Virus record (IMG/VR): IMGVR_UViG_3300028048_000050
Coordinates: 19,494-83,493 of that record
Strand: one strand, 5' to 3'
Length of the DNA: 64,000 nucleotides
Source: a virus
Taxonomy: Duplodnaviria > Heunggongvirae > Uroviricota > Caudoviricetes
In this document: positions 2,675 through 61,239 of the stretch, piece by piece
How the letters are laid out: each line of letters starts with the position of its first letter
Position numbering within the stretch: the stretch's first letter is position 1
Made by a program: the position numbers and the translations under genes
The notes under the pieces: generated by a model
What the model was told of the DNA's origin: nothing
Seen by the model: the letters and a program-made list of their open reading frames with translations, nothing else
The model's database searches: none

Positions 2675-3937
2675 TTAAAATCTAAACATTAGTTCTCTAG
2701 GTTTTTGAACAGTAGTAGTAGGAATTTCTCCCCTAAGTACTTGATCTAAACCTTTTTCATCAATGGTTATATAGTTATCAGTTTTAGAATGAGAATCTTT
2801 AAACCATTTAGTTTCTTGTGTATTATTTAGAACTATGTAAAATATTTCAGCTACTTTGTCTTCAAATTTACGAACAACACGTCCTCTTCTTTGAGTAGAT
2901 TTTGTTTCAGAACTGTCAAATCCTAAAATTATAGCTACAGAAGCATCAGGACAATCAAAACCTTCATCAAGTTTTTTACAAGAATGTAATGTAGTTATAT
3001 TTCCAGTTATAAAATCTTCTAACATTACTCTTCCTTTCTTTTTTGAAGTTTTACCTGTATAAACATTTTGACCTCCTTCTATACTTTCTGCTATTTCGAC
3101 ACTATTACTAAAAGTTATAATTTTAGAACCTTGTTTAGCTTCTATTATTTTTCTAGCAACCTCTACTTTTCTTGGATGATTATATATAAAAGACTTTCTA
3201 GCAGTCATAGTTCTCATAAATTCTGCTGAATGATAATTAATAGATTGAAGAATTTGTTTCTTCATATTTTCATCATTACCTTTATATAATTCATCTCTAT
3301 ATTTTAATTTATTTTTCCAACCTTCTCCTTTTCTAACCATTGACATTGCTAAACCAAAATCAAATTGGAAAAATTCAAAATGTTTTAACCATTCTGTATG
3401 TAGAGATTTATAATAATCAATGTTATCAACATCAATAAGAACCTGATATTCCTTATATTGAGAAATCCATCCATTTACTAAACATTCTATTGTAGAAACT
3501 TCATCAGCTACTGGACAATATTTCTGTATAAGAGCGTGTTTACCGTCAAGTCTTTCAATAGTTGCTGTCAGTCCTAAAATTAATTTGTATTTTACTTGTT
3601 GAAATACTTTACTAAATTCGTCAGCTCCAGTTCTATGTATTTCATCTATTATTAACATATCACACATCCAAGAATGTTTAATACAAGTATTAATAATAAC
3701 TACTTCTACATTAAACTGGAATCCCCATTCGTCTATATGACCTAACCATTGAACTTTTAAAGCCTCAGTTGGAACGACAACAAGAATCCTAAATTGAGGA
3801 TATTTCTTTAATAAAGCCTTAATTGCTGTTAAAGCACATCTTGTTTTGCCATATCCTGTACTTCCTACAATAGTTCCTTTACCTTTGAGAGCTAACCATT
3901 TCTTTACAGATTCTCGTTGTCGTTCAGTTCTAGTCAT
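2675..3937 (-). CDS. SF2 DEAD/DEAH-box helicase
   Basis: 420-aa ORF. Motif I is GSTGYGKT and motif II is DEIH, followed by TAT-like and C-terminal helicase motifs. Confidence 0.65.
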   Translation of the reverse strand: MTRTERQRESVKKWLALKGKGTIVGSTGYGKTRCALTAIKALLKKYPQFRILVVVPTEALKVQWLGHIDEWGFQFNVEVVIINTCIKHSWMCDMLIIDEIHRTGADEFSKVFQQVKYKLILGLTATIERLDGKHALIQKYCPVADEVSTIECLVNGWISQYKEYQVLIDVDNIDYYKSLHTEWLKHFEFFQFDFGLAMSMVRKGEGWKNKLKYRDELYKGNDENMKKQILQSINYHSAEFMRTMTARKSFIYNHPRKVEVARKIIEAKQGSKIITFSNSVEIAESIEGGQNVYTGKTSKKKGRVMLEDFITGNITTLHSCKKLDEGFDCPDASVAIILGFDSSETKSTQRRGRVVRKFEDKVAEIFYIVLNNTQETKWFKDSHSKTDNYITIDEKGLDQVLRGEIPTTTVQKPRELMFRF

Positions 3938-9219: not shown

Positions 9220-9461
9220 ATTTTACGTGAATTGTATCTTTTTTACACTTAGGGCATTTCATAGGCACAAAAAAAGGTGGTCATTTCTGATCACCTACAA
9301 GATTTATAAATTTACGTTCACCTTTAAAATTCGTATACCATAATACAGTATGTTTTCCTCCTATATAATCTGTATAAGAGTCAATCCATGGATGTGTATA
9401 AGTTATCACAGCCCATAAAATAAGTAAAATTATCCAAACCATAATATTTAGTTTTAGTTAT

Positions 9462-9540
9462 GTGCGACCACTGGGAATCGAACCCAGGTCTTCGGATTAG
9501 AATGTTATATTTACCTAGTCATTTATAATACATTTATCAA
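9462..9540 (-). tRNA. tRNA-like 3' fragment (T-arm CTGGG-TTCGATT-CCCAG plus acceptor 3' strand; no matching 5' strand found)
   Basis: The reverse complement of gtgcgaccactgggaatcgaaccc shows a T-arm. No pairing 5' acceptor strand lies within 150 nt. Confidence 0.25.
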
Positions 9541-10597
9541 AGGAAAAATCATCTAAGTAATGTACTCCTTTTTGTTGATTATTTGAAGGAGGAGTTACTC
9601 TAACAGTCAAAGATTTTCTGCTTCCTATCTCTTCTATAGGGATTAATATACTTTTATTTAATGGTTGTATATAATAAGCAATATAATCTACATCATTTTC
9701 GTATGTAGTATAATGCTTATTCGTAGTATGATTAGTACTACTAGCACAAGGACATACAATAGAATTATTTTCAGTTACTTGTGCACAATATTTTATCTAT
9801 ATTTTGTTTAATTTACCATTAAACTCTGCTATTAAATCATATCTAGCTGTATCACCAAATGGTAATGAGCACTATACTCCTCTTTTAACAAATTCAGCTA
9901 ATATAACAGCTTCTCCAACATTTCCTTTTTCTTTTGAAATCATATTACATAAACATAATAAATACATGAGGTGCTTCCACACGGTACTGACCCGTATTCC
10001 CGAAATTAAAAGTTTCGTGCATCACCTTAATGCTTTGGAAGCTAAATTATCTATCACGGGCTTTACCCCTAAGCTATGGACGCAACAAGAAGAGAAGATA
10101 TACTTCTCTTTAATCTTAATGGATACTTATAGTATCAATTAATAAAGAATCAATAGAATCTGTAATTTCAACAGAATCAATTGAAATAGAATCAGACACT
10201 TCTGATTGCTTAGTAGAATTACCTCCACAAGCAAACATTAACATCATTGCTGCTAATATAAACAAAATTTTCTTCATTTTCTCTCAAATTTTAAATAAAA
10301 ATAATCATCTATTAAATAAATGGAAGTAATCCAGCATTAATTGCAGGACCATACATCTCCATAACACCCTCCATATAAGCGTGTCCAACTCTTTTAATGA
10401 AATTTTTTACTTTTCTAGCCATAATTTTATTACAAATTTAAAGTTTATAATTTAATTATCTAATTCAATTTAAATATATCATTTTAATCTAAAAATCAAA
10501 TGTGTACGAACACTTCTTGACATAGATCAATTGATATAAATCAAGTGAACTAATCTATAAACATTTAAGTTATGTAATATCATTATTTTAGGTTTTA

Positions 10598-11483: not shown

Positions 11484-11929
11484 GTTAAATTTTCATATCG
11501 AAAAAGAATCTTTTTAGTAGGAGTTTTTTCAAAAGAAGAGATTTTTACAAAACCAAGATATTTCATTAAGAAATACTCTTCTTGTAACATACCTTGAGGC
11601 TTGTGGTCATAAAAAGCAGCAGGAACATTTCTATATCTCTTAAAATATTCCGGATTATCATATACAATACTACGAACTAAATCTTCGTGTTCGCAAGATT
11701 TACATTTATGAATAGTTCCATCAATTTCTACAAATCCTGTAAAAGGAAACCTATCTCCTAATTCAGTTTGAATTGGAATATCCCAAAGATTTTTTAATGT
11801 TTCTTCTGCTTTATCTGCTCTTTTACTAGCCTCTCTATAAGCTAAAGAATAATCTTCATCACCATAAGGAACATTATAACACAAATGTTGTTGATGGTTT
11901 AAAATTCTTTCTAATTTAAAAATATTCAT
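11450..11929 (-). CDS. hypothetical protein
   Basis: 159-aa ORF. Confidence 0.4.
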   Translation of the reverse strand: MNIFKLERILNHQQHLCYNVPYGDEDYSLAYREASKRADKAEETLKNLWDIPIQTELGDRFPFTGFVEIDGTIHKCKSCEHEDLVRSIVYDNPEYFKRYRNVPAAFYDHKPQGMLQEEYFLMKYLGFVKISSFEKTPTKKILFRYENLTWKQSDIIYPQ

Positions 11930-14288: not shown

Positions 14289-14364
14289 TAGCGTAGACAA
14301 GACTCGAACTTGCACAGACTTCATCCCAAATGAAGGCGGATACCTATTACCGTTATACTACGCT
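14289..14364 (-). tRNA. tRNA-Pro (UGG)
   Basis: Acceptor AGCGTAG/CTACGCT. Anticodon arm CTTCA-TTTGGGA-TGAAG. Confidence 0.5.
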
Positions 14365-14602: not shown

Positions 14603-14724
14603 ATATGCTAGGACTTCCTCTACCTAGCTTTGCAGATTTTCCAATTTTGGCTGGAAGGTTTACCTACACTTATGCAGTAGGTCGCACGCAGGTTCTGCTT
14701 AACCTTACCCGAAAAGGATTATAG

Positions 14725-14797
14725 TGCTCGTAGAGGGATTCAAACCCCCGGCACACTGTTTTGAGGACAGCTGTTCTGATCGCTGAACTATACGAGC
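14725..14797 (-). tRNA. tRNA with anticodon UCA (opal/UGA-reading; suppressor- or Sec-like; C33 instead of U33)
   Basis: Canonical 73-nt cloverleaf: acceptor GCTCGTA/TACGAGC, D-stem GTTC/GAAC, anticodon arm GCTGT-CCTCAAA-ACAGT, T-arm GGGGG-TTTGAAT-CCCTC. Confidence 0.5.
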
Positions 14798-15563: not shown

Positions 15564-16142
15564 TTAATTAAACTTTCTATTTTTAAATCTTTTAACAATA
15601 TTTCTAGATGGAAGCTGTCCGCCCTGTTTCATCCATCTTTTCTATAAAGATAAAGCAAGTTTACCAATATTTGTTCCTTTATTAATTTTAATATTAGCTC
15701 CAGGAATAATATATCCTTCTGGAACGATATTTTTAGCATAAGATATAGGCTAACTTCTATCAATATAATAATATTCTCCTGTAGAATGATTTTGTCTCAT
15801 CCAATATTTTTTTCCATCTCTTCCAGTATATTCAATAGCACCCATTGGAACATTATATACAACATTATATTGAACCTTAGATTGAGGTTTTATTGTTTTT
15901 TTATTTTTTGATTTATTTAAAGATCCTGTTATAATAGGTTCTTTAACAGTATTTTCTGTTCCTCCTATTTTATTTCCCATAATTCTATCATTTCCACGAA
16001 TTTCATTAGAAGTAGGATTATTTCTTTCCCAACCTAAATGCTTTGGAGAATTATCTGTTGGTAATAGTGCAGACATTTCATTCATGTTATCCACAAATGA
16101 TTCATATGCAGAATCGTTTCCGGCTGCCTTAGAATTATACAT
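15564..16142 (-). CDS. hypothetical protein with two in-frame TAG codons (candidate TAG read-through; hexapeptide-repeat-like C-terminal extension)
   Basis: The 130-aa ORF ends at a TAG at 15750-15752. Hand translation continues in frame as PISYAKNIVPEGYIIPGANIKINKGTNIGKLALSL-TAG-KRWMKQGGQLPSRNIVKRFKNRKFN-TAA. Confidence 0.35.
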
Positions 16143-17041
16143 TCTTGTTACCCCATTAGCATCCGTCCAATTAAAATATCTCTATTTTTTATTACGAGCA
16201 TCATTCCACGCCTATTTAAATGATATTCCGTTCTAAGCCTTTAATAGTTTTTTACCCTATTTAAATCTCTATACAGGGTTTCTTGAAATTAATTTGTTCA
16301 TCTTAAATAAATTTTAACGTTAAAATAAAGAATTATCTACTTTAACTACTAATTTACTTATAAATGTTAAAATTTCAAAATTTTAATCTTCACATAAAGA
16401 TTCTATAAATTTCTTTACTCTTGGTCCTAATCTTCCCCATTTATTTATCTTAACAACAATAATATCAGGAATTAGTTCGTCTTCAGATTTTAAAGAACTA
16501 AATAATTCAACACCTTCTTTAAAATATTGTTCTAAAGAACGTATTTCTAATATTTCAATACTCTTCATATTCCTATATGTTTTTTACACGATTCTATATA
16601 ATAATTTTTTATTGTTTTGTATTCTCCATCATAATGTTTCCACTCAATTAGATGTTTTATCCATATTCTGTCTAATTTAGATGGATGTTTCTTTTTTAAC
16701 ACTCTTAATTTCATATTGTTAATTGTTTAAATTAAACTGGAGGTAGTCTCCAGTTAAATACTTGTGCATAAATTCCAGTCATGCCTTTGACTCTTCTCAA
16801 TTTTGTTAAGAGTTGCCCCAATCACCGATCGATTTAGTAATGATAGGCCAGTTTTCACTAGCCGGGACTAAAACCCTATTTTGTAATTATTACCAGGTTG
16901 GTCGGACACAACCTTATATAATTTTTCCATCAACAAATACAATGTTATGTGGAAAATCATATAATAAACTGAGAATATCATCATTATCATTTAATTGATA
17001 GTTATTAGGAACATTTACTTCTATTTGTAATTTTACTGTTT

Positions 17042-25077: not shown

Positions 25078-25089
25078 GAAACATTATTG

Positions 25090-25135
25090 TGAGTATCTCG
25101 TTGTGGAGTCAGAGGGAGTTGAACCCTCGTCCAAA
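25090..25135 (-). tRNA. tRNA 3'-half-like fragment (T-arm GAGGG-TTCAACT-CCCTC plus TGACTCC); no partner 5' half found
   Basis: Reverse complement of ggagtcagagggagttgaaccctc. Confidence 0.2.
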
Positions 25136-25436
25136 TAGAGTTTATTCTATAAGAATTATACAAGCTTCTGTGTATTTTTACTAATCAGTCAATTAGAAGG
25201 ACCAACACTTCCTTGTTTTAAGACTTTAAAAGAGATCTTTGCTAATGTCTTGCTTGAAACTTTTAATAACTGAGTAAGTTTCCAACTCAGGCAGCCATTA
25301 ATTCTTTAGAATTAAAAGCTACAATTTTAATGTTTAATAAGTCGCCTTTTATTCTTTTATAGGTCTCTCCCTATTGTCAGTGCTTGTTCTTATTACCTTC
25401 ATCTATTGTCTATTTTCCTTTTGACCCCAAGTATTG

Positions 25437-25857: not shown

Positions 25858-26064
25858 AAACAACCTTATAGTGAGTAGAAATATATAGTCATTTTTCTAA
25901 TATATAAGGTTCTACTAGATGCTATCTAGGAATTTATTTGGACCTCACCATGCTCGTCACCAGAGTTATTTTCTCAATATAAGCCTACAGCTTTTACCAT
26001 TATAAACTGTTAAGGGGAATGCATCTATCTTTTACAACCTATGCTCCTATAAGGTTGGACTATG

Positions 26065-26139
26065 TCATCGGTAAGGGATTCGAACCCTTGATCTCCAGGA
26101 TGAAAACCTGACGTCCTAGGCCAACTAGACGAACCGACG
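26065..26139 (-). tRNA. tRNA-Glu (UUC)
   Basis: D-stem GTCT/GGAC. Anticodon arm TCAGG-TTTTCAT-CCTGG. T-arm AAGGG-TTCGAAT-CCCTT. Confidence 0.5.
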
Positions 26140-26215: not shown

Positions 26216-26246
26216 TTTAAAATTATGCCACGTTCCGAAAGATAGA

Positions 26247-26882
26247 TTATGCTGGTTCAGGCATATATTTCCAAATATAACCAAAAGCTTCTTGTTGTAT
26301 TCCATTACAACATCTTGTTATACCTACATGTGCTCCAGAGTTTTGTGTAATGTTATTTTCCTATAACCATTTCTAAGCTTCTCTAGAACCATAAAAAATT
26401 TGAATAAAATTACCAGCTAAATCATATTGAGCTATTAATTTAGAGTGTGCGTTACGGAGTTTTATTCCATGAGCTTTTAATACTTTGCTAATAGTTTCTT
26501 TAATACACCCCAATTTTTTAGAAATCTATTCTCTTGTATACCCTAATCTAGCTAATTCTATTATTTCATTGTGATCATACAATATTTTTCCGTCACCACC
26601 TTTAGTAGCATTATATCCGTTATGACCATAAGTCTATAATTCGTTTATCCAATAAACCTCCCTTTCAGATAATTTAGAATCATCTTCTATGTATTCAATT
26701 TCTTCTATCTTAAAATTTTCTATACCATATTTATTCATGGCATCATATAGAGGACGTTTTTCACATCTACTTCTCTAATAATCGTTTTGATGTTCCCTCC
26801 ATCTTTCATCTAAACTATTTATAGTTTTTCCTATATACCTTTTACTATTAATTAAGTTAGTAATACAATAAATATATCCCAT
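26247..26882 (-). CDS. GIY-YIG homing endonuclease with four in-frame TAG codons
   Basis: Hand translation of the minus strand starting at the ATG at 26882 gives MGYIYCITNLINSKRYIGKTINSLDERWREHQNDY-TAG-..., which is the classic GIY-YIG motif. It continues about 212 codons to a TAA. The ORF track splits it because of the TAGs. Confidence 0.6.
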
Positions 26883-26901
26883 TTTTTTAAATTTTTATTA
26901 G

Positions 26902-26974
26902 TCCCGAAAAAGAGAATCGAACTCCTGTCTCAGCATTATGAGTGCTGCGCTTTAGGCCGCTAAGCTATTTCGGA
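26902..26974 (-). tRNA. tRNA-Met (CAU), elongator-type (could also be Ile2/lysidine-type)
   Basis: D-stem GCTT/AAGC. Anticodon arm CAGCA-CTCATAA-TGCTG. T-arm GGAG-TTCGATT-CTC. Confidence 0.5.
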
Positions 26975-30707: not shown

Positions 30708-30782
30708 GAAGAAAGATTTTCAGTCTTTTGCGTTTACCATTCCGCCACATTTCCAATCGGAAAAGAAGGGATTCGAACCCCT
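30708..30782 (-). tRNA. candidate circularly permuted tRNA-Phe(GAA)-like gene: T-arm plus acceptor 3' strand (30758-30782) sit directly upstream of acceptor 5' strand, D-arm and anticodon arm (30708-30754)
   Basis: Sense order: AGGGG-TTCGAAT-CCCTT CTTTTCC G ATT GGAAATG TG GCGG-AATGGTAAA-CGC A AAAGA-CTGAAAA-TCTTT. The 3' strand pairs 6 of 7 with the downstream 5' strand. No T-arm follows the anticodon arm. Confidence 0.3.
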
Positions 30783-30863
30783 ATTTCATTCATACGAATG
30801 AGATTGTAAGTATCTTATATTACTAATACGTTAGAAAGTTTTCTAAAAAAGGTTACTAAATGA

Positions 30864-30943
30864 TTACGTCAAATTACAAATTTGATGCTCTACCATTGAG
30901 CGATTCTGGCAAAAATGGAGCCCGAACTAGGAATCGAACCTAG
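30864..30943 (-). tRNA. candidate circularly permuted tRNA-Thr(UGU) gene: 3' half including an encoded CCA (30911-30943) lies upstream of the 5' half (30864-30910)
   Basis: Sense: CTAGG-TTCGATT-CCTAG TTCGGGC T CCA TTTTT GCCAGAA TC GCTC-AATGGTA-GAGC A TCAAA-TTTGTAA-TTTGA CGTAA. The reassembled 76-nt cloverleaf is canonical with a 6 of 7 acceptor stem. Confidence 0.35.
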
Positions 30944-33549: not shown

Positions 33550-33625
33550 TGAAGGGTAAAGGAATCGAACCTCTGTCCTCTATGCCGAAGCAGTCGAATA
33601 ATCCTAACCACTAGACGAACCCTTC
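33550..33625 (-). tRNA. tRNA-like gene with a non-canonical anticodon region (a UUCG-type hairpin instead of a 7-nt loop)
   Basis: Acceptor GAAGGGT/ACCCTTC. T-arm AGAGG-TTCGATT-CCTTT. Confidence 0.3.
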
Positions 33626-34101: not shown

Positions 34102-34211
34102 CGGCGAGGGTGGGAGTCGAACCCACTTTTTCAAATTTGACATATTTGCGTTAATAAATTTGATGTTGTAAGTAACTAAACAGATACTCATTTCCGTTTA
34201 ACTACCTCGCC
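34102..34211 (-). tRNA. 110-nt tRNA-Asp(GUC)-like gene with a family insertion between the D region and the anticodon arm
   Basis: Acceptor GGCGAGG/CCTCGCC. Anticodon arm CAAAT-ATGTCAA-ATTTG. T-arm GTGGG-TTCGACT-CCCAC. The insertion contains GAGTATCTGTTTAGTTACTTACAAC. Confidence 0.4.
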
Positions 34212-34565: not shown

Positions 34566-34685
34566 CGGCGGAGGCCGGATTCGAACCGACTATTTTAATT
34601 TATCAGATTAATTTTTTACCTTGAAATTATATGATAATATTGTAAGTAACTTGAGTTACTCTAAATTTACCATAAACTTCTCCGC
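34566..34685 (-). tRNA. 120-nt tRNA-Ile(GAU)-like gene with a family insertion on the 5' side of the anticodon arm
   Basis: Acceptor GGCGGAG/CTCCGCC (perfect). Insertion AGTAACTCAAGTTACT-TACAATATTATCATATAATTTCAAGGTA. Anticodon arm TTAAT-CTGATAA-ATTAA. T-arm GTCGG-TTCGAAT-CCGGC. Confidence 0.4.
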
Positions 34686-35014: not shown

Positions 35015-35129
35015 GGAGGCCTGTAGGATTCGAACCTACACTATTAGTCTATCCTAAGGGAACACTTTCTAACCCGAAGCTTATTTACCTTTAAAGATAG
35101 TTGTGCTACCCGATTAACACTAAGACCTC
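35015..35129 (-). tRNA. 115-nt tRNA gene with a different insertion of about 40 nt (contains GCTTCGGG) enclosed by stem CTATC/GATAG; the loop begins TTTAAAG (UAA-like)
   Basis: Acceptor GAGGTCT/AGGCCTC. D-stem GTG/CAC. T-arm GTAGG-TTCGAAT-CCTAC. Confidence 0.3.
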
Positions 35130-35353: not shown

Positions 35354-35403
35354 TTATAATATTATAAGTATCTTTAAAGACATTAAGATGAGTAAAGTAA
35401 TAG

Positions 35404-35480
35404 TGGAGAAGGAAAGACTCGAACTTCCAAACACTTATACCTAGAATTTTAAGCTGCTATACCATTTCGCATACTTCTCC
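35404..35480 (-). tRNA. tRNA (the loop CTTAAAA suggests a Leu-UAA type; the anticodon stem is unclear)
   Basis: Acceptor GGAGAAG/CTTCTCC (perfect). T-arm TGGAAG-TTCGAGT-CTTTCC. Confidence 0.35.
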
Positions 35481-51140: not shown

Positions 51141-51784
51141 ATGCTAAATAATTTAATAAATAAAGGACTGAGGAATTAACCTCAGTCCAAGAGCCCTATC
51201 TTTGCTACCCTCTCTCCGAATTCCAGGGACCGTCACGGAGGAATGAGGAAGATGGAACTGAAACTATTTCAGTTCTACTTATCTCCTAAATATATAATAA
51301 TTCTTTAGATTTACTTCTCAGGATGAGAAGTGGTGGCTTAGGTTTTCATTTTCCCACGCGTGACCACAGGGGGAGCCGAGGGGTAGTGTACCCCCTCCCT
51401 CACAACAAAAAAAATTTCAAAAAAATTTTAGAAAAAATTTTAGAAAATAAAAACCCTTATAAAAAATATAGGGGGGGGAATATAAAAATAACTTTCAAAA
51501 AATAAAAAAAAATAAAAAATTTTTATAGAGGTGTTAAACTCGAAAGGAAAAATTCAAGCCGGAAGGCCAATTAATTATAGTTATTTAATTATAGTATTAA
51601 TTATAGTTAGTGTCGAATTTTTTAATAGACCCATAGGTATTTTTTAACTAACCCATATTTATTTTTTAATTTACCCGTTGGATTTTTTAATTTAGTCCTA
51701 AAATTTTGAAATTTTCATAGAGGTGGATATTTTTAATATAAATAAAATTATAAAAATATGTAGTATGAATAGAATAAATAGTTT
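51141..51784. promoter_or_regulatory. divergent intergenic control region between the minus-strand block and the plus-strand late block: GGCTTAGGTTT motif (51335-51345), GC hairpin GAGGGG-tagtgtac-CCCCTC (51378-51397), G8 run, three TTAATTATAGT repeats (51569-51610), four direct repeats of about 21 bp NNNNATTTTTTAA(C/T)TA(A/G)CCC (51613-51698)
   Basis: No credible ORF. It is very AT-rich apart from the GC hairpin. The iteron-like direct repeats were seen directly in the sequence. Confidence 0.5.
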
Positions 51785-52321
51785 GTGATACTTCCAAATG
51801 AGGTAGTAGATTGTGAAGAAATTAGTCCAAAAACTTTGGTAGTTTATTGTGCTATAAAACAACATATGAATAAAGATACTTTAGAAGCTTTTCCTGGAAT
51901 TAAAACTATTGCTAAAGAAGCGGGATGTGGAGAAGATGCTGTAAGAAAAGCAATTAAAGAATTGGTAGATAATAAGTTTATACAACAAATAATAAGACCA
52001 GGTCAAAGTACAATTTATAAATTCTCTACAACAAAAAGTTTTGAACCTTTCTCATATGATTTTTTAAAAGATGATAAAATAAAGATTAGAGAAAAAGCAT
52101 ACCTTATGATGAATCAAAAAGATATGTATAATAAAGGAACTGGAATAGGAACAATTTCTTTCTCTACAAAAGAAGTGGCAAAAAGAACTAGAATGTCTGT
52201 TCCTACAGTATTAGCTTGTGAAAACACTTTAATAAAAGCTGGATATTTATCTAAACCTGATTCAAAATTAATAGATACAGAATCTGGAACACATCAAGAT
52301 TTAAGAATGTATTTATTATAG
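51785..52321 (+). CDS. putative winged-helix / HTH DNA-binding protein (regulator or replication-initiator-like)
   Basis: 178-aa ORF. It is the first gene in the plus direction after the control region and has no TAG codon. Confidence 0.4.
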   Translation: MILPNEVVDCEEISPKTLVVYCAIKQHMNKDTLEAFPGIKTIAKEAGCGEDAVRKAIKELVDNKFIQQIIRPGQSTIYKFSTTKSFEPFSYDFLKDDKIKIREKAYLMMNQKDMYNKGTGIGTISFSTKEVAKRTRMSVPTVLACENTLIKAGYLSKPDSKLIDTESGTHQDLRMYLL

Positions 52322-52525
52322 TTATATAATATGGCTGCTGTCACATATAGATAGACACAATAGAATACAGAGGATATACAAGAATTACAAAAAGATAATG
52401 CCATAATGAAAAAACAAATTGAAATATTAACCAGAGCTATATTTAAAGAAGAAAAAACTCCAGAAATTAAGATTTAACATTTTTTAAATTTGTCTTTTTA
52501 AAATAACAAATATATTAGTATTGTT

Positions 52526-52891: not shown

Positions 52892-52907
52892 TAAGTAACT
52901 AGAGATT

Positions 52908-52995
52908 GCTCTGTGGTGTAATGGTTTAGCACAGCGGACTCTAAATCCGTAGCCCTCTGAAGGCGTAAGTGTGGGTTCGAATCCTACCAGGGCAA
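52908..52995 (+). tRNA. amber suppressor tRNA, anticodon CUA, class II (long variable arm; closest in arm sequences to this window's own tRNA-Leu(UAA))
   Basis: Acceptor TGCTCTG/CAGGGCA. D-arm GTG-TAATGGTTTAG-CAC. Anticodon arm GCGGA-CTCTAAA-TCCGT. Variable arm AGCCCTCTGAAGGCGTAA. T-arm GTGGG-TTCGAAT-CCTAC. Confidence 0.6.
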
Positions 52996-53196
52996 CAACA
53001 TTAATACAATTTTAGAATGGATACAAAATTATTTAAAGATTTATATCAAGCAAATATTGATGAAATTAAAGCTATAGAACAATTATCTATAGAACATAAT
53101 ATGTTAGATAATGGATATTACTTAAACTGGAAAGATAATTTAAATAAACTATCTATAGATTTAGATAGAGAATAATAATTAAATTTTAATGGGTGT

Positions 53197-53228
53197 AAAA
53201 AATTAAAGGCTCCTCAGGAAACTGAAGA
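53197..53228 (+). terminator. rho-independent terminator-like hairpin followed by a T-run
   Basis: aaaggctcctcaggaaactgaagagccttttttt. Confidence 0.45.
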
Positions 53229-53244
53229 GCCTTTTTTTGTTGTT

Positions 53245-53921
53245 GGTTTATAATTTAATGCTATATCAAATCCAGTCTAAAGAGTATTAGTAAGTGCGTT
53301 AGTAATATAATTAGTTTTTCGCTATTTTACTTGTTCATCTAAAAACTTTTTATAATTGTCATTAAATTCTTTCTATTTTGCTGCTATAGGAGCTTGTGCT
53401 AAATAATTAACATGATTTTTTACAATGGAACCTCCATTAGCATTAGGATTATCTGGATCAAAATGTAATTTAGACATTATTTTATCATAATTACTCTAAA
53501 CCTCATTTTCCTATTGTTGATTCTACATATACTACAAAGCAGTATTTGTCATAATATCTGAATAATTATTATTATAAGAAGATTCAGAATTACTTCCTCC
53601 TAACATAGAACTTATTCCACTAGCTGCTAATTTACCCCAATCACTGTTTAAAAAATTTCCAACTTTTCCTAAACTATTTGATATCCAATTAGTTTTAGTT
53701 CCATCAGAAGCTTTAATAATACCGCCTTCTTTATGCTTCCATTTTCTAGCATTAGCAGCAAATGTAGCTTTCTTTCTTATCTTTGGGTTAGAACTATTCT
53801 TACCTCTCTAAATACATTCATCTGTAACATTTCCTCCACACCATTTAGTAAATGTTCCTTTCTAAGACTCTTTGATATGGATTTTATGTCCTTTTTTAAA
53901 AATTTTTACGACGTCGTTCAT
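53245..53921 (-). CDS. minus-strand gene(s) with multiple in-frame TAG codons (hypothetical; possibly two genes)
   Basis: Hand translation starting at the ATG at 53921 gives MNDVVKIFKKGHKIHIKES-TAG-KGTFTKWCGGNVTDECI-TAG-RGKNSSNPKIRKK.... It continues through MSKLHFDPDNPNANGG... (second ATG at 53477) with further TAGs. The boundaries are uncertain. Confidence 0.3.
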
Positions 53922-57354: not shown

Positions 57355-57573
57355 ATGGATGAAAAGATTTATTTTGTTCCTGGTTAGAAGGTAACCCTTC
57401 GCCAGGACATACCAAATAAACCTATTATGTTGGTACATAGAGTTGAACGCTCTATAATTAGAAATGAAGATAAGAATGCCTTACTTAAAGGAGTAAAGGT
57501 AAGATGGTTTACAGAAAACGGTTTCTTACAAGAAGCTGTATTCTCAACAAAAGATTTAATCTTAGTCGATTAA
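57355..57573 (+). CDS. small hypothetical protein with one in-frame TAG
   Basis: MDEKIYFVPG-TAG-KVTLRQDIPNKPIMLVHRVERSIIRNEDKNALLKGVKVRWFTENGFLQEAVFSTKDLILVD-TAA. Confidence 0.4.
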
Positions 57574-57575
57574 CT

Positions 57576-58355
57576 ATGGACACAAAAAAGAGTAAAAATT
57601 TAAAGAATGATTTTTATAATTGGTGTGAAAGAAATAATAAACAACCTAAATCTTAGGAAGAGGTTCAAGATTTATTAGTGACTTTTATAACTGAAAATAA
57701 AGAGAAATATCCAGAAGAATATGCTAAAATTCAAACTGCATAGAAAAAAACAACAAGAGCTCTTCATGGTGCTAAATTAAATTATTTTAAATCTTTAAAA
57801 CATCAATGTGCTGAAGATGAAGAAGTAGTTTATTACAAGAAAGGTGGTTCTGTAACTTGTGGTTGTAAAAAGAAAGAACAAGGAGGAGAAGTTCCTTCAG
57901 CTAAAGATGGTGCTGTAGCAAAATTTAAGAATAGAAAGAATATTCCAGCTCCTCAACAACAAATAAATCCTAATGATACTATTCATGTAAATGGACAAAT
58001 TAAAAGTTTAACTAATGAACCTATTAAAGATAAGAACAATACTTATAAACCTCTAACTCCAGAAGAATATAAAAAACTTAAGGATAAGGATAAGAATAGA
58101 GTGGATGAAAAAGATGCCGCTCGTGGAAGACAAGTACATAAATGTGGAGGTAAAGTAAAGAAAGGAGAAGACGGACTTCTTCCTATAAAGAATCCTAAAG
58201 GAAAACCTTCTAAGAATATTAATAGAGGAGGAACTAAAAGTAAACTTCCTGTTCAATCTAAAGGTTCAAAAATAAATAAAGATTGTGGAGGTTCTTCTAT
58301 TGTTTCTCAATTTAAGAAACATTTCTGGGGAGGAAAACTTGGACTTAAAAAATAA
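57576..58355 (+). CDS. lysine-rich basic protein with two in-frame TAGs (virion-internal or DNA-binding candidate)
   Basis: The frame is continuous from the ATG at 57576 through TAGs at about 57654 and 57741 to the TAA. The C-terminal part is the ORF at 58101..58355. Confidence 0.45.
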
Positions 58356-58387: not shown

Positions 58388-58963
58388 ATGAATATATGGG
58401 ATTATAATTAGAAAACTGGAAGAGCACAATTATTAACTGCTGATTTAGTTTTAATTGATGAATTTAAAAAATTATTAGAACCTTCCAGAAATAAATGTAA
58501 TGAGGATCCTTCTGGACTAGAACACATTAGAGCTGATAGAGAGTTTACTTATATATATTTAGCAATAGATTGGAAATCTCCATATGCTAATTATAGCAAT
58601 TAGGAAAAACATGAAGCTGCTTTAAAAGATGCTCATATTTCAGAAGAAGAATGGAATAACCCTGAATTTCGTGCTGCTTGTAGAAAGTATGTATCAATTC
58701 AAGATTCCAATAGATATGTAAGATTACTTCAAGCTGCTTAGGAGGTAACTGATAAGATTATTGATTATTTCCATAATGTGGATTTACAAGAACAAGATGA
58801 ACAAGGTAAATATCTTGTTAAAGTTAAAGATGTTCAAGCTGCTATGAAAGAGGCTGCTGATCAAATTGAAACTTTGAAACAAATTGAATCTCTTGTTAAG
58901 AAAGAAGTTATGGAGCAAAGTCAAATACGTGGTGGAGCTGTTGAAGGATTTATGCCTGATTAA
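58388..58963 (+). CDS. hypothetical protein with three in-frame TAGs (possible small terminase subunit, by position only)
   Basis: MNIWDYN-TAG-KTGRAQLLTADL...ANYSN-TAG-EKHEAALKD...LQAA-TAG-EVTDKII... then the ORF at 58778..58963. Confidence 0.4.
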
Positions 58964-61239
58964 TGGAGGAAATTAAAAAGAAAAGAGGTCGTCCACGTAA
59001 GAATCCTATACCAGAAGTTCCTGAGGAAGTTTAGTCTATAATTACTGAGGTTCAACAAAAACAAGAGGAACTTCAACAGCAAATAGAAGAAATAAAGCCT
59101 TAGGTTGTAGAACACAAAGAAGGTGAATGGGATGTCAAAATAGGAGACCCGATACCTTACTTTGATAAAAGACTTTCCTATGAATTAACTGGATATAGAC
59201 CTATTACAGAAACAGAAGGATTAGATTTTGATCCTTCTTGGTTTACTGAAGCTAGAGAAATATTCTTAAAGACAGAACAATATTGTTCTTATTATCCAGG
59301 CTCAAAACTTTATAGAGATTTCTGGAATGAAGAATATAGAAGATGTAAGGAAGGAATGACAGTTAATGGTTATACTATTACTGGATTTAACTATTACTTT
59401 CTTAATTATTATCAATTACCTAATACAGAACAAGATGTAGCCGGTGATAGCCGTTCTATTATATTTCCAAGATTCTTTGTATATCAATACGAATTCTTTC
59501 ATTACTTTGAATTATGTAGAAAGTTAAGAAAGAATATGACTGTAATGAAAAACAGAGGATGTGGATTTTCTGAGATACATGCTTCTATATTTGATAATTT
59601 CTTTAACTGTTTTAAAAATAGTATATGTCTTCTTACTGCTTTCGATGATAACTATGTTAAAAAAACTCTTGATAAAATTAATGCAGGAATAACTTTTACT
59701 GATGATAATACTCAAGGAGGAATGTTAAAACTTAGACAAGTTATTAATACAGCAACTAAGAAAAGAGCTTCTCACTATAAAGTAGTAAATGGTCAAAAAA
59801 TTGAAACAGGTTTCATGTCCCAAATTGAAGGAATTGTTGTAGATAAGGATAGAAAGATGAGAGGTGACCGTGTAGGTTTCTTATTTCTTGAAGAATCAGG
59901 TTCTAATCCTATACTTGAACGTTCCTTTATTAAAGCAGAAGAACTTGTAACTGTTGGTGGTAATAAAATTGGTATTATAGCAGCAGTAGGAACAGGTGGT
60001 GATGCCGGTCCTAATCTTGAAGGTTTAAGAAAAGTATATTATAATCCTAAAATGTTCCAAGTGCTTCCATTTAAACATAATTATACAGAAGATGGAGATT
60101 GGGTTGAAACTGCTTATTTTATACCTGCATATATTTCAATGAATAACTCAAAATTTGTTGGAAGTCGTGGTGAATATCTCATGGAAAAACAAAGAGAACA
60201 TTATGAACAAAGACGTGCAGATATAACTGATCCTAAAACTTTATTAGACCATAAAGCAGAGCAATGTTTCACAGCTGAAGAAGCCTTTGCAGCGGAAGGT
60301 GTAAATAAATTTAATAAACTTAAAATAGCTGAACAAATTATAGCTATTAGAATTAAAAAACAAGCTCCTCCTATTCAAAGAGGATATATGGAGTTTGTAT
60401 ATTCTGGTCCAGAAAGAAAAAGAGAAAATATTATCGGAGTTAGATTTAAACCTAATCCGAATGGGCCTGTTAGAATATTAGAAGAACCTTTATGGGAAGA
60501 CGGAAGTCCTATAATCCAAAATCTTTATGTAGCAGGAATTGACGGTATTGATATTGGACAAGCAGAAACTTCTAAAGAAACTAGAGATCCTTCTAAATTT
60601 TGTACTATGATAAAACGTAGAGTACATGGAATGAAGGAACCTATGTATGTGGCATATTATTTAGATAGACCTAATGATATTAGAGAAGCATACAAACAAA
60701 CAATGGCTTTATTATGGTATTATCAAGCCAAAGCTAATATAGAAGCAACTCGTTTGTCTGTTCTTACATACGCTCGTGATAATAAGTTTGCACATTTCTT
60801 TATGAAACGTCCTAGAGCTTGTTATGGAGGAGACGAAAGAAGAAGAACTAATGGACAATACGGTACTACAGCTACTACAGCCATGATTGAACATGGCACT
60901 GATTTAGTTGCTTCGTATGTAGAAGATTACTGTCATAATATATGGTTTATAGAATTTTTAGAATAGTTAAATCTTTATACTGATGAAAATAAAGGTAAAT
61001 TTGATATGGTTGCAGCGTGTCAAATGGCAGAAGTTGGAGATGAAGAGTTAAGTGATATTATTCCAAGAGAATATAAACCAGTTTCTAAGGAATTTAAAGA
61101 TATAGGATATTACACCGACGAAAATGGACATAAAAAATTTGGTGTAATACCAAAACAAAATGAAAACTCTGTTAGAGGACATATAAATACAGGATATGTC
61201 GAGGGTTATAATATAACAAGTAATTCAAGATATAGATGA
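58963..61239 (+). CDS. terminase large subunit-like protein (about 758 codons, three in-frame TAGs)
   Basis: The ATG at 58963 overlaps the upstream TAA. The N-terminus is MEEIKKKRGRPRKNPIPEVPEEV-TAG-..., with a second TAG at 59101. The body is the ORF at 59356..60966 (Walker-like VMKNRGCGFSE and LLTAFDD, plus an RNase-H-like nuclease motif LYVAGIDGIDIGQAETSKETRDPS). A TAG at 60964 joins it in frame to 61006..61239, which ends at a TGA. Confidence 0.5.

Follow-up and report, generated by a model that had tools for sequence, protein, structure and literature searches.

We find that a recoded gene at positions 26247 to 26882, on the minus strand of a phage genome fragment, is predicted to encode an intact, free-standing GIY-YIG homing endonuclease built on the modular plan of its free-standing and intron-encoded kin. 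The fragment, referred to here as the window, is a 64,000-nucleotide stretch of a Caudoviricetes genome (positions 19,494 to 83,493 of the IMG/VR record IMGVR_UViG_3300028048_000050). Taking the explanation as a whole, we consider it probable that this endonuclease, lodged between a tRNA-Met and a tRNA-Glu gene of a crAss-like phage in which TAG stands for glutamine, is kept in check by its own in-frame TAG codons, which would gate its production through the code switch of the phage.

Translated from 26882 to 26247 with TAG as a sense codon, the open reading frame (ORF) starts MGYIYCITNLINSKRYIGKT and comprises 211 sense positions before a terminal TAA; up to the first in-frame stop sign it reads MGYIYCITNLINSKRYIGKTINSLDERWREHQNDY. 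TAG is the sole interruption: the full-frame translation is free of in-frame TGA, of internal TAA and of frameshifts. The preliminary description of this DNA, which was made from the letters and their reading frames, had recognized that only TAG breaks the frame but had counted four such codons. We find five, at codons 36 (26775–26777), 83 (26634–26636), 119 (26526–26528), 170 (26373–26375) and 174 (26361–26363), all on the minus strand and placed by translation. The earliest of the five precedes the catalytic Glu74/75, and the TAG at codon 119 occupies a nearly invariant glutamine position at the start of a predicted helix-turn-helix (HTH).

The assignment to the GIY-YIG homing endonucleases, which had been proposed from the motif at the N-terminus, is borne out by searches of the protein with TAG read as Gln. 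Pfam PF01541 (GIY-YIG) matches residues 1–91, a stretch with two TAGs inside it, with an E-value of 6e-13 (49.3 bits against a cut-off of 22.6); the best match among the PHROG homing-endonuclease families is PHROG 314 (E 8e-31), and the closest solved structure by sequence is the catalytic domain of I-TevI (1mk0; E 8e-8, residues 4–93). The search with profile models was significant for this domain but not for the C-terminal half, where NUMOD1 scored 19.8 bits, under its cut-off of 22.8, and the HTH models of Pfam likewise stayed below threshold. An AlphaFold2 model was built for P0001, a database protein 97% identical to the window endonuclease. The model has a mean predicted local distance difference test score (pLDDT) of 82 and consists of the GIY-YIG domain, a disordered linker (residues 87–101), a three-helix bundle (104–137) and a beta-beta-alpha module (149–206), with a pLDDT above 90 for the latter two. 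Foldseek aligned the N-terminal domain of the model with I-TevI (1ln0; template modeling score 0.75 on the target, root-mean-square deviation 2.6 Å), and for the rest of P0001 returned a weak match only, to the DNA-binding region of I-HmuI (E 0.05). The layout of the window protein would thus be a GIY-YIG domain (residues 1 to about 90), a flexible linker (about 87–101), a three-helix HTH (about 104–137) and a NUMOD1-like beta-beta-alpha module (about 149–206). The 30 homologues compared all retain Y3, Y5, Y16, G18, R27, H31, E75 and N91, and at least 90% of them have Gln at the position of codon 119.

Several lines of comparison indicate that TAG is read as glutamine in the window phage. Family-wide, Gln is 4.2-fold enriched in alignment columns that hold a TAG, and in homologues 77–88% identical TAG is swapped with CAA or CAG at codons 83, 119, 174, 152 and 161. 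Among the closest relatives (cited here by locus number), codon 83 is CAA in L054 and TAG in L053 and L055, codon 119 is CAG in L054 and CAA in L055, and codon 174 is CAG in L054. The TAG at codon 36 is kept in L053 and L013 and is AGA in L054 and L055, and codon 170 is TAG in L053, L054, L055 and L013. The locus L053 is syntenic with the window at about 85–95% nucleotide identity over 4 kb and has kept all five TAGs, unchanged despite a synonymous divergence (dS) of 0.3. The two genes differ by 28 synonymous and 7 non-synonymous codons, and the ratio of non-synonymous to synonymous divergence (dN/dS) is 0.048 over codons 37–211, that is, past the first TAG. The endonuclease ORF is under purifying selection over its whole length.

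The window contains two genes with a CTA anticodon. A suppressor tRNA(CUA) with a clean cloverleaf and a long variable arm is encoded at 52907–52996 on the plus strand (58.8 bits), at the head of a recoded block of plus-strand genes, and an atypical tRNA-like gene with an oversized anticodon loop lies at 35403–35480 on the minus strand (38.3 bits), upstream of the endonuclease and on the same strand. In the former, the U1-A72 pair and the D-arm are nearly identical to those of the phage tRNA-Gln(UUG), while the variable arm is type-II-like. From this likeness in the D-arm and U1-A72 it would be a glutamine tRNA, and we suggest that it is the reader of the five TAGs of the endonuclease; both which of the CTA-anticodon tRNAs decodes TAG and with what amino acid are points that we infer from these features. 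A third, well-formed tRNA has the anticodon TCA (14724–14797, minus strand; an opal suppressor, which ARAGORN labels SeC), and by eye no in-frame TGA was seen in the terminase, the portal or the long minus-strand ORFs. This matches reports of idle second suppressors in zeta crAss-like phages.

The phage itself appears to be a divergent large crAss-like gut phage. Its large terminase (58963–61239) is 26–30% identical to crAss-like terminases, 44–47% identical to proteins of unannotated human fecal contigs, and 91% identical to the terminase encoded on the 183-kb IMG/VR contig 3300028591_000001, whose tRNA array also holds members of the endonuclease family. A megablast search of 24 kb against a collection of deposited phages returned no close relative, and the endonuclease gene is covered only by unannotated fecal contigs at about 70% identity. 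In make-up, the window is similar to large crAss-like phages of the zeta/epsilon type such as Lera, which have a big tRNA block, CTA and TCA suppressor tRNAs of which one is in use, and variable homing endonucleases (PMC12386605). The likeness extends to a genome of about 180 kb (183 kb in the relative L059/L004), to two opposed gene blocks and to endonucleases that differ between close relatives, whereas Lera recodes TGA and the window phage recodes TAG.

Of some 47 ORFs on the minus strand with 100 codons or more, about 38 are TAG-free. TAG makes up 40 of the 185 Gln codons in the plus-strand block that begins at 51.7 kb and contains the terminase, portal and amidase genes, and 5 of the 11 Gln codons in the endonuclease. 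It is from its TAG-free state that we would regard the minus strand as early. The suggestion in the preliminary description that recoding is not confined to the late strand holds: besides the endonuclease, three further minus-strand ORFs outside the plus-strand packaging block are recoded (9497–9967, 15564–16301 and 53214–53921).

The position within the tRNA array is also as first described. The gene for tRNA-Met(CAT) lies directly upstream (26901–26974, minus strand; Rfam 62 bits), with its 3′-end 18 nt from the endonuclease ATG, and that for tRNA-Glu(TTC) (26064–26139, minus strand) begins 107 nt past the stop codon. The three genes share the minus strand and are part of a series of tRNA genes with that orientation, and the window as a whole has 33 tRNA genes called by ARAGORN and a few extra tRNA matches to Rfam. 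The 18-nt spacer between tRNA-Met and the ATG (26883–26900, minus strand; TAATAAAAATTTAAAAAA) is A/T-rich and free of ribozymes, and none of its promoter- or terminator-like matches exceeds chance. A scan for promoters and terminators around the endonuclease gave results at or below shuffled expectation, with a consensus that does not cover Bacteroidota or phage promoters. A check of the flanks for a target-site duplication yielded a single, degenerate candidate: a direct repeat, CTATCTTTCGGAAC (26232–26245, minus strand), which begins one base past the stop codon and agrees at 11 of 14 positions with the final 14 nt of tRNA-Met, CTCTTTTTCGGGAC (26901–26914). This score was reached in 1 of 200 random windows, and in several relatives the tRNA 3′-end is repeated at 13/14 positions right after the endonuclease stop codon. 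The window holds one copy of the gene and no other GIY-YIG copies.

Based on this arrangement, we suggest the following mechanism. As there is no promoter- or terminator-like signal between the gene and the tRNAs, the endonuclease would probably be co-transcribed with the tRNA array and then freed by tRNA processing. In a cell without amber suppression, ribosomes would halt at codon 36, and the product, a peptide of 35 residues, would not extend to the catalytic Glu; for active enzyme the phage tRNA(CUA) would hence be required. Five TAGs in series, each contested by release factor 1, could be expected to give a low output that depends steeply on the level of the suppressor. In this way the TAGs would work both as a translational gate and as an attenuator, coupling the output of endonuclease to the phage code switch, and the gate would be the counterpart of the hairpin block at the ribosome-binding site (RBS) that delays I-TevI and SegB in T4. 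The enzyme, once made, would presumably cut the tRNA region of co-infecting relatives without the gene, and repair would copy the gene in.

An indirect test of the gate comes from the family, which gives a new quantitative observation. As null model, the TAGs of each family member were scattered at random over its own Gln codons. Among 50 TAG-bearing representatives with less than 80% identity, 49 have a TAG within codons 1–40, where 29.0 would be expected (P < 5e-6), and at less than 60% identity 27 of 28 do, where 15.8 would be expected. No such excess is seen in control ORFs, which were taken at lengths of 200–320 codons from the neighborhood of the large terminase gene (TerL) in related phages: 52 of 104 have an early TAG, and 49.5 would be expected. 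TAG accounts for a share of 0.78 of the Gln codons within codons 1–40 and for 0.26–0.34 in each later window of 40 codons. Fifteen distinct N-terminal columns carry TAG, with 71 TAG against 17 CAA/CAG, which implies many independent origins; at columns 119, 152 and 161, where Gln is conserved, CAA/CAG prevail. The window gene, with its first TAG at codon 36, fits the family pattern, and about half of the family is TAG-free. We regard the enrichment as moderate evidence that an early TAG is kept by selection. The preliminary description had proposed that the gene would be silent until the suppressor tRNA is made and that this could limit toxicity; of this, the enrichment lends indirect support to a selected gate. 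On the wider proposal, that a TAG within about 40 codons is a selected gate that makes this family of tRNA-array endonucleases suppressor-dependent, so that a code switch of the phage has been co-opted by selfish elements, our judgment is evenly balanced. Other TAG-bearing nucleases in the same arrays, namely a PD-(D/E)XK enzyme at 9497–9967 of the window and an HNH enzyme in L054, may be under like gating.

A number of points weigh against such a gate and must be set beside these figures. The enrichment test clusters sequences, which leaves some shared ancestry in the counts. Past codon 40 the TAG share of about 0.3 equals that of ordinary recoded genes near TerL (0.28), as it would under drift. 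The CTA-anticodon tRNA-like gene at 35403–35480 is upstream of the endonuclease on the same strand, and some relatives place the endonuclease directly downstream of tRNA(CUA). Suppressor and endonuclease mRNA may therefore become available at once; a model of timing alone is weakened by this, and a role in setting a dose or threshold is at least as likely as pure delay. Effects on timing and dosage in the window phage are in either case what we infer from the arrangement of its genes. Finally, we found no Met-Glu site empty of the homing endonuclease gene, and an exact 29-mer taken from the 3′-end of tRNA-Met had no match in IMG/VR.

The simplest alternative is that the TAGs are ordinary Gln codons that have drifted into a dispensable selfish gene and regulate nothing. 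The TAG share beyond codon 40 (0.26–0.34), so like that of recoded genes near TerL, the CTA tRNA-like gene upstream on the endonuclease strand, the relatives that sit directly behind tRNA(CUA) and the TAG-free half of the family all suit such neutral recoding. We nevertheless find it rather unlikely, since it would have to accommodate a TAG in codons 1–40 in 49 of 50 members instead of the expected 29 while length-matched controls are unbiased, a preference of 71 to 17 for TAG over CAA/CAG across 15 N-terminal columns, and the fact that nearly all neighboring minus-strand genes shun TAG entirely. Less likely again is that the enzyme has been domesticated as a manager of the tRNA array and is kept for the benefit of the phage, as SegB of T4 and T6 is, with the TAGs merely limiting its dose. 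It could then exclude the tRNA regions of rival phages, or amplify tRNA segments against tRNA-targeting defenses. SegB homologues do co-localize with tRNAs and amplify tRNA segments to escape Septu (PMC13096335), and the strong purifying selection in the family, the range of at least 15 adjoining tRNA isotypes, often with multiple copies per array, and the movement of tRNA and endonuclease as one module would all be in keeping with that role. However, the window gives no sign of amplified tRNA segments and has a single GIY-YIG copy, only the catalytic domain is common to SegB, and an actively homing selfish gene would be expected to show purifying selection just as much.

A further possibility is that the TAGs serve as a code lock, confining expression to genomes with an amber suppressor so that the element is inert in a standard-code phage or a bacterial chromosome. 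The TAG-bearing members do cluster among the closest relatives, with more distant members TAG-free, and at least eight of the distant TAG-free members seem to end their own frame with TAG. Such confinement would, however, be a consequence of recoding; a narrower host range for the element is not easily selected for, and the code lock leaves the N-terminal concentration of TAG unexplained, for which reasons we hold this account to be improbable. We give the least credence to a decaying pseudogene, that is, a dead endonuclease whose TAGs are nonsense mutations, and have rejected it as a candidate. Homing endonuclease genes often degenerate once fixed, and codon 43 of the relative L011 is an in-frame TGA, yet all five stops in the window gene are TAG although TAA is the commonest accidental stop at 31.5% G+C, there are none of the frameshifts that indels would bring during accidental decay, the catalytic residues are intact, TAG interchanges with CAA/CAG in homologues, and past the first TAG dN/dS is 0.05, with the five TAGs conserved in L053 at a dS of 0.3. 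We thus favor the reading in which the gene is intact and its TAGs gate production.

Among the nearest known systems is SegB of T4, a GIY-YIG endonuclease in the tRNA cluster that recognizes the T-psi-C motif of tRNA genes (PMC2330249). Homologues of SegB co-localize with tRNAs in many phages, including phages of Bacteroidota, and amplify tRNA segments against defense (PMC13096335). The comparison with segB made in the preliminary description is sound as far as position goes, as both genes are free-standing between tRNA genes on the tRNA strand, within a polycistronic tRNA region, and the proteins share the GIY-YIG domain and a similar size (221 residues in SegB, 211 in the window). BLASTP, however, aligns residues 3–107 only (106 residues, 35% identity, E 1e-9) and the C-terminal half is unrelated by sequence, so that orthology with SegB was rejected for want of full-length homology. 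Expression of SegB is also restrained at translation: in T4, I-TevI, I-TevII, I-TevIII, SegB and MobE are transcribed in early or middle polycistronic RNAs, and RBS-sequestering hairpins delay their translation until late (PMC2988022), where the window gene has in-frame TAG codons instead. I-TevI, from the td intron of T4, is alike in having a catalytic domain, a flexible linker and a DNA-binding domain that ends in an HTH, and as a system in combining early transcription with late translation, a feature of I-TevI itself. It differs in being intron-encoded, whereas the window gene is free-standing in an intergenic spacer, and in its mechanism of delay; no zinc finger of the I-TevI type was detected in the window endonuclease.

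The idea of a recoded endonuclease with postponed production has been put forward by Borges et al. (10.1101/2021.08.26.457843), who argued that the recoded stops in an intron endonuclease of Agate phages, which lies amid early genes, should postpone its production. As in the window, that endonuclease is located among early standard-code genes and is itself rich in recoded stops. The Agate gene belongs to another clade, reads TGA as Trp and is encoded in a group I intron, whereas the window gene has TAG for Gln and stands free in the tRNA array of a crAss-like phage. That preprint reports no bias of the recoded codon toward the N-terminus, and in the literature we found no description of recoded GIY-YIG genes in tRNA arrays of crAss-like phages or of an N-terminal bias in recoded codons.

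According to the current view, the recoding of stop codons serves gut phages to delay late genes, on evidence that consists mostly of which genes carry recoded codons. The endonuclease offers a compact testable case, being a non-essential and potentially toxic nuclease in a TAG-free, tRNA-rich block. We consider it a new member of established kinds with one new quantitative observation attached, and the regulatory reading to be plausible but not conceptually new. Should the gate prove true, it would mean that mobile elements within recoded phages have adjusted to the code switch and make use of it, and the endonuclease would be a simple reporter of when and how strongly amber suppression starts in infection. 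The gate would likewise be a functional equivalent of the RBS hairpins of T4, with a statistical signature of the adaptive use of a reassigned stop. We point out that annotation with the standard code shatters the recoded endonuclease genes of tRNA arrays, and that for this reason these enzymes are easily missed, as is their association with tRNAs and theta ribozymes.

The window gene belongs to a large family that colonizes the tRNA arrays of gut phages. A metagenomic protein collection contains more than 3,370 homologues, mostly of about 211 residues and already with Gln at the TAG positions. The DNA-backed set consists of 162 full-length genes from IMG/VR and metagenomes, which encode 127 unique proteins and reduce to 102 representatives under 80% identity. 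A same-strand tRNA lies upstream with its end within 100 nt of the start codon in 51 of 100 representatives and within 300 nt in 72, and 86 of the 100 have some tRNA within 1.5 kb. The adjoining tRNAs are of at least 15 isotypes, and several copies of the family per tRNA array are common among relatives. The module of tRNA-Met and endonuclease reappears in L054 amid unrelated flanks; in L055 the window endonuclease lineage stands beside a homologue of window 11528–11782, and in L004 and L015 the Met-Glu spacer holds a lineage that is only 41–43% identical to the window endonuclease. Together with the repeat that follows the stop codon, the changing flanks look like the trace left by a mobile cassette whose insertion sites are tRNA 3′-ends.

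The homologues are mosaic. The L054 protein has diverged from the window protein in residues 1–85 and is nearly the same from residue 86 on, and that of L055 matches the window protein in the middle but not in the C-terminal third, which suggests that lineages of the endonuclease have recombined at domain boundaries. In L011 (6001–6633) the in-frame TGA at codon 43 stands where the near-identical L010 has an Arg codon, and reflects either a decaying copy or a sequencing error. Upstream of the tRNA-Met and endonuclease module of L054, an ORF at 2–475 encodes an HNH endonuclease (PF13391, E 3e-10) with an in-frame TAG; as this ORF is TAG-bearing too, three recoded nuclease families occur in these tRNA arrays.

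In many relatives a ribozyme accompanies the endonuclease. Theta ribozymes, which resemble the hepatitis delta virus (HDV) ribozyme and are associated with tRNAs, have been described by Kienbeck et al. (2024, PMC10879173) in a paper that is silent on endonucleases. In these relatives the leader of 68–97 nt between tRNA and endonuclease is an HDV-like theta ribozyme whose G1 abuts the discriminator base of the tRNA and whose helices P1 and P2 covary; examples are found at L015:5632-5696, L001:3194-3258(-), L141:2926-2991 and some 50 further loci. Roughly a third or more of the family members have such a ribozyme exactly between the tRNA's 3′-end and the start of the endonuclease. A covariance model built from the relatives found 54 theta copies in 100 endonuclease loci, and 53 of the 54 are followed by an endonuclease start within 64 nt. 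Of 49 ribozymes fetched by their core alone, nine precede a GIY-YIG gene and two precede HNH-like ORFs. We therefore rejected the idea that the ribozyme is exclusive to the endonuclease cassette (9/49 in the core-fetched sample against 53/54 in loci selected for the endonuclease), and regard the link between the two as frequent, not exclusive. The window, with its spacer of 18 nt, has no theta ribozyme, the best covariance score being 15 bits (E 0.66).

The other recoded ORFs of the window are of several kinds. The minus-strand ORF at 9497–9967 encodes a PD-(D/E)XK endonuclease (PF11645, E 2e-31) and has three in-frame TAGs. Just upstream of it is a tRNA missed by ARAGORN (9972–10042; Rfam 39 bits; anticodon loop CUUUUAA), and the whole unit (9450–10085) is bracketed by what appear to be the halves of a tRNA, with the 5′-half GCGTCCATAGCTTAGGGGTAAAGC near 10083 and the 3′-half CTGGGTTCGATTCCCAGTGGTCGCA near 9489–9465, whose acceptor strands pair at 6 of 7 positions. 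It looks as if a cassette of tRNA and endonuclease had split a tRNA gene here; no group I intron around this ORF was matched in Rfam, even up to an E-value of 10. The minus-strand ORFs at 15564–16301 and 53214–53921 have 7 and 9 TAGs, respectively, and are rich in Lys and Gly. They gave no Pfam or PHROG match, and share short motifs (KFKNRK and K..GG) with the plus-strand ORF at 57504–58355. The first gene of the plus-strand block (51758–52477) encodes a protein of the DnaD/replication-initiator type (PHROG 270/186). As it holds six in-frame TAGs, recoding reaches a replication-type gene too, beyond the structural and lysis genes.

Two minor observations concern the tRNA array itself. In L053, ARAGORN made a tmRNA-like call at 2945–3269 (about 25080–25435 in the window), in a 358-nt gap between tRNA-Asp and tRNA-Ser. 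This call has no ARAGORN or Rfam counterpart in the window and is probably a false positive, the gap being otherwise unexplained. On the minus strand of the window, Rfam tRNA matches that ARAGORN did not call lie at 34102–34211, 35015–35129, 30758–30910, 33550–33625, 34574–34627 and 14289–14364. Three of these six span 110–153 nt, and could represent tRNA genes with sizeable insertions, possibly introns, or degenerate copies.

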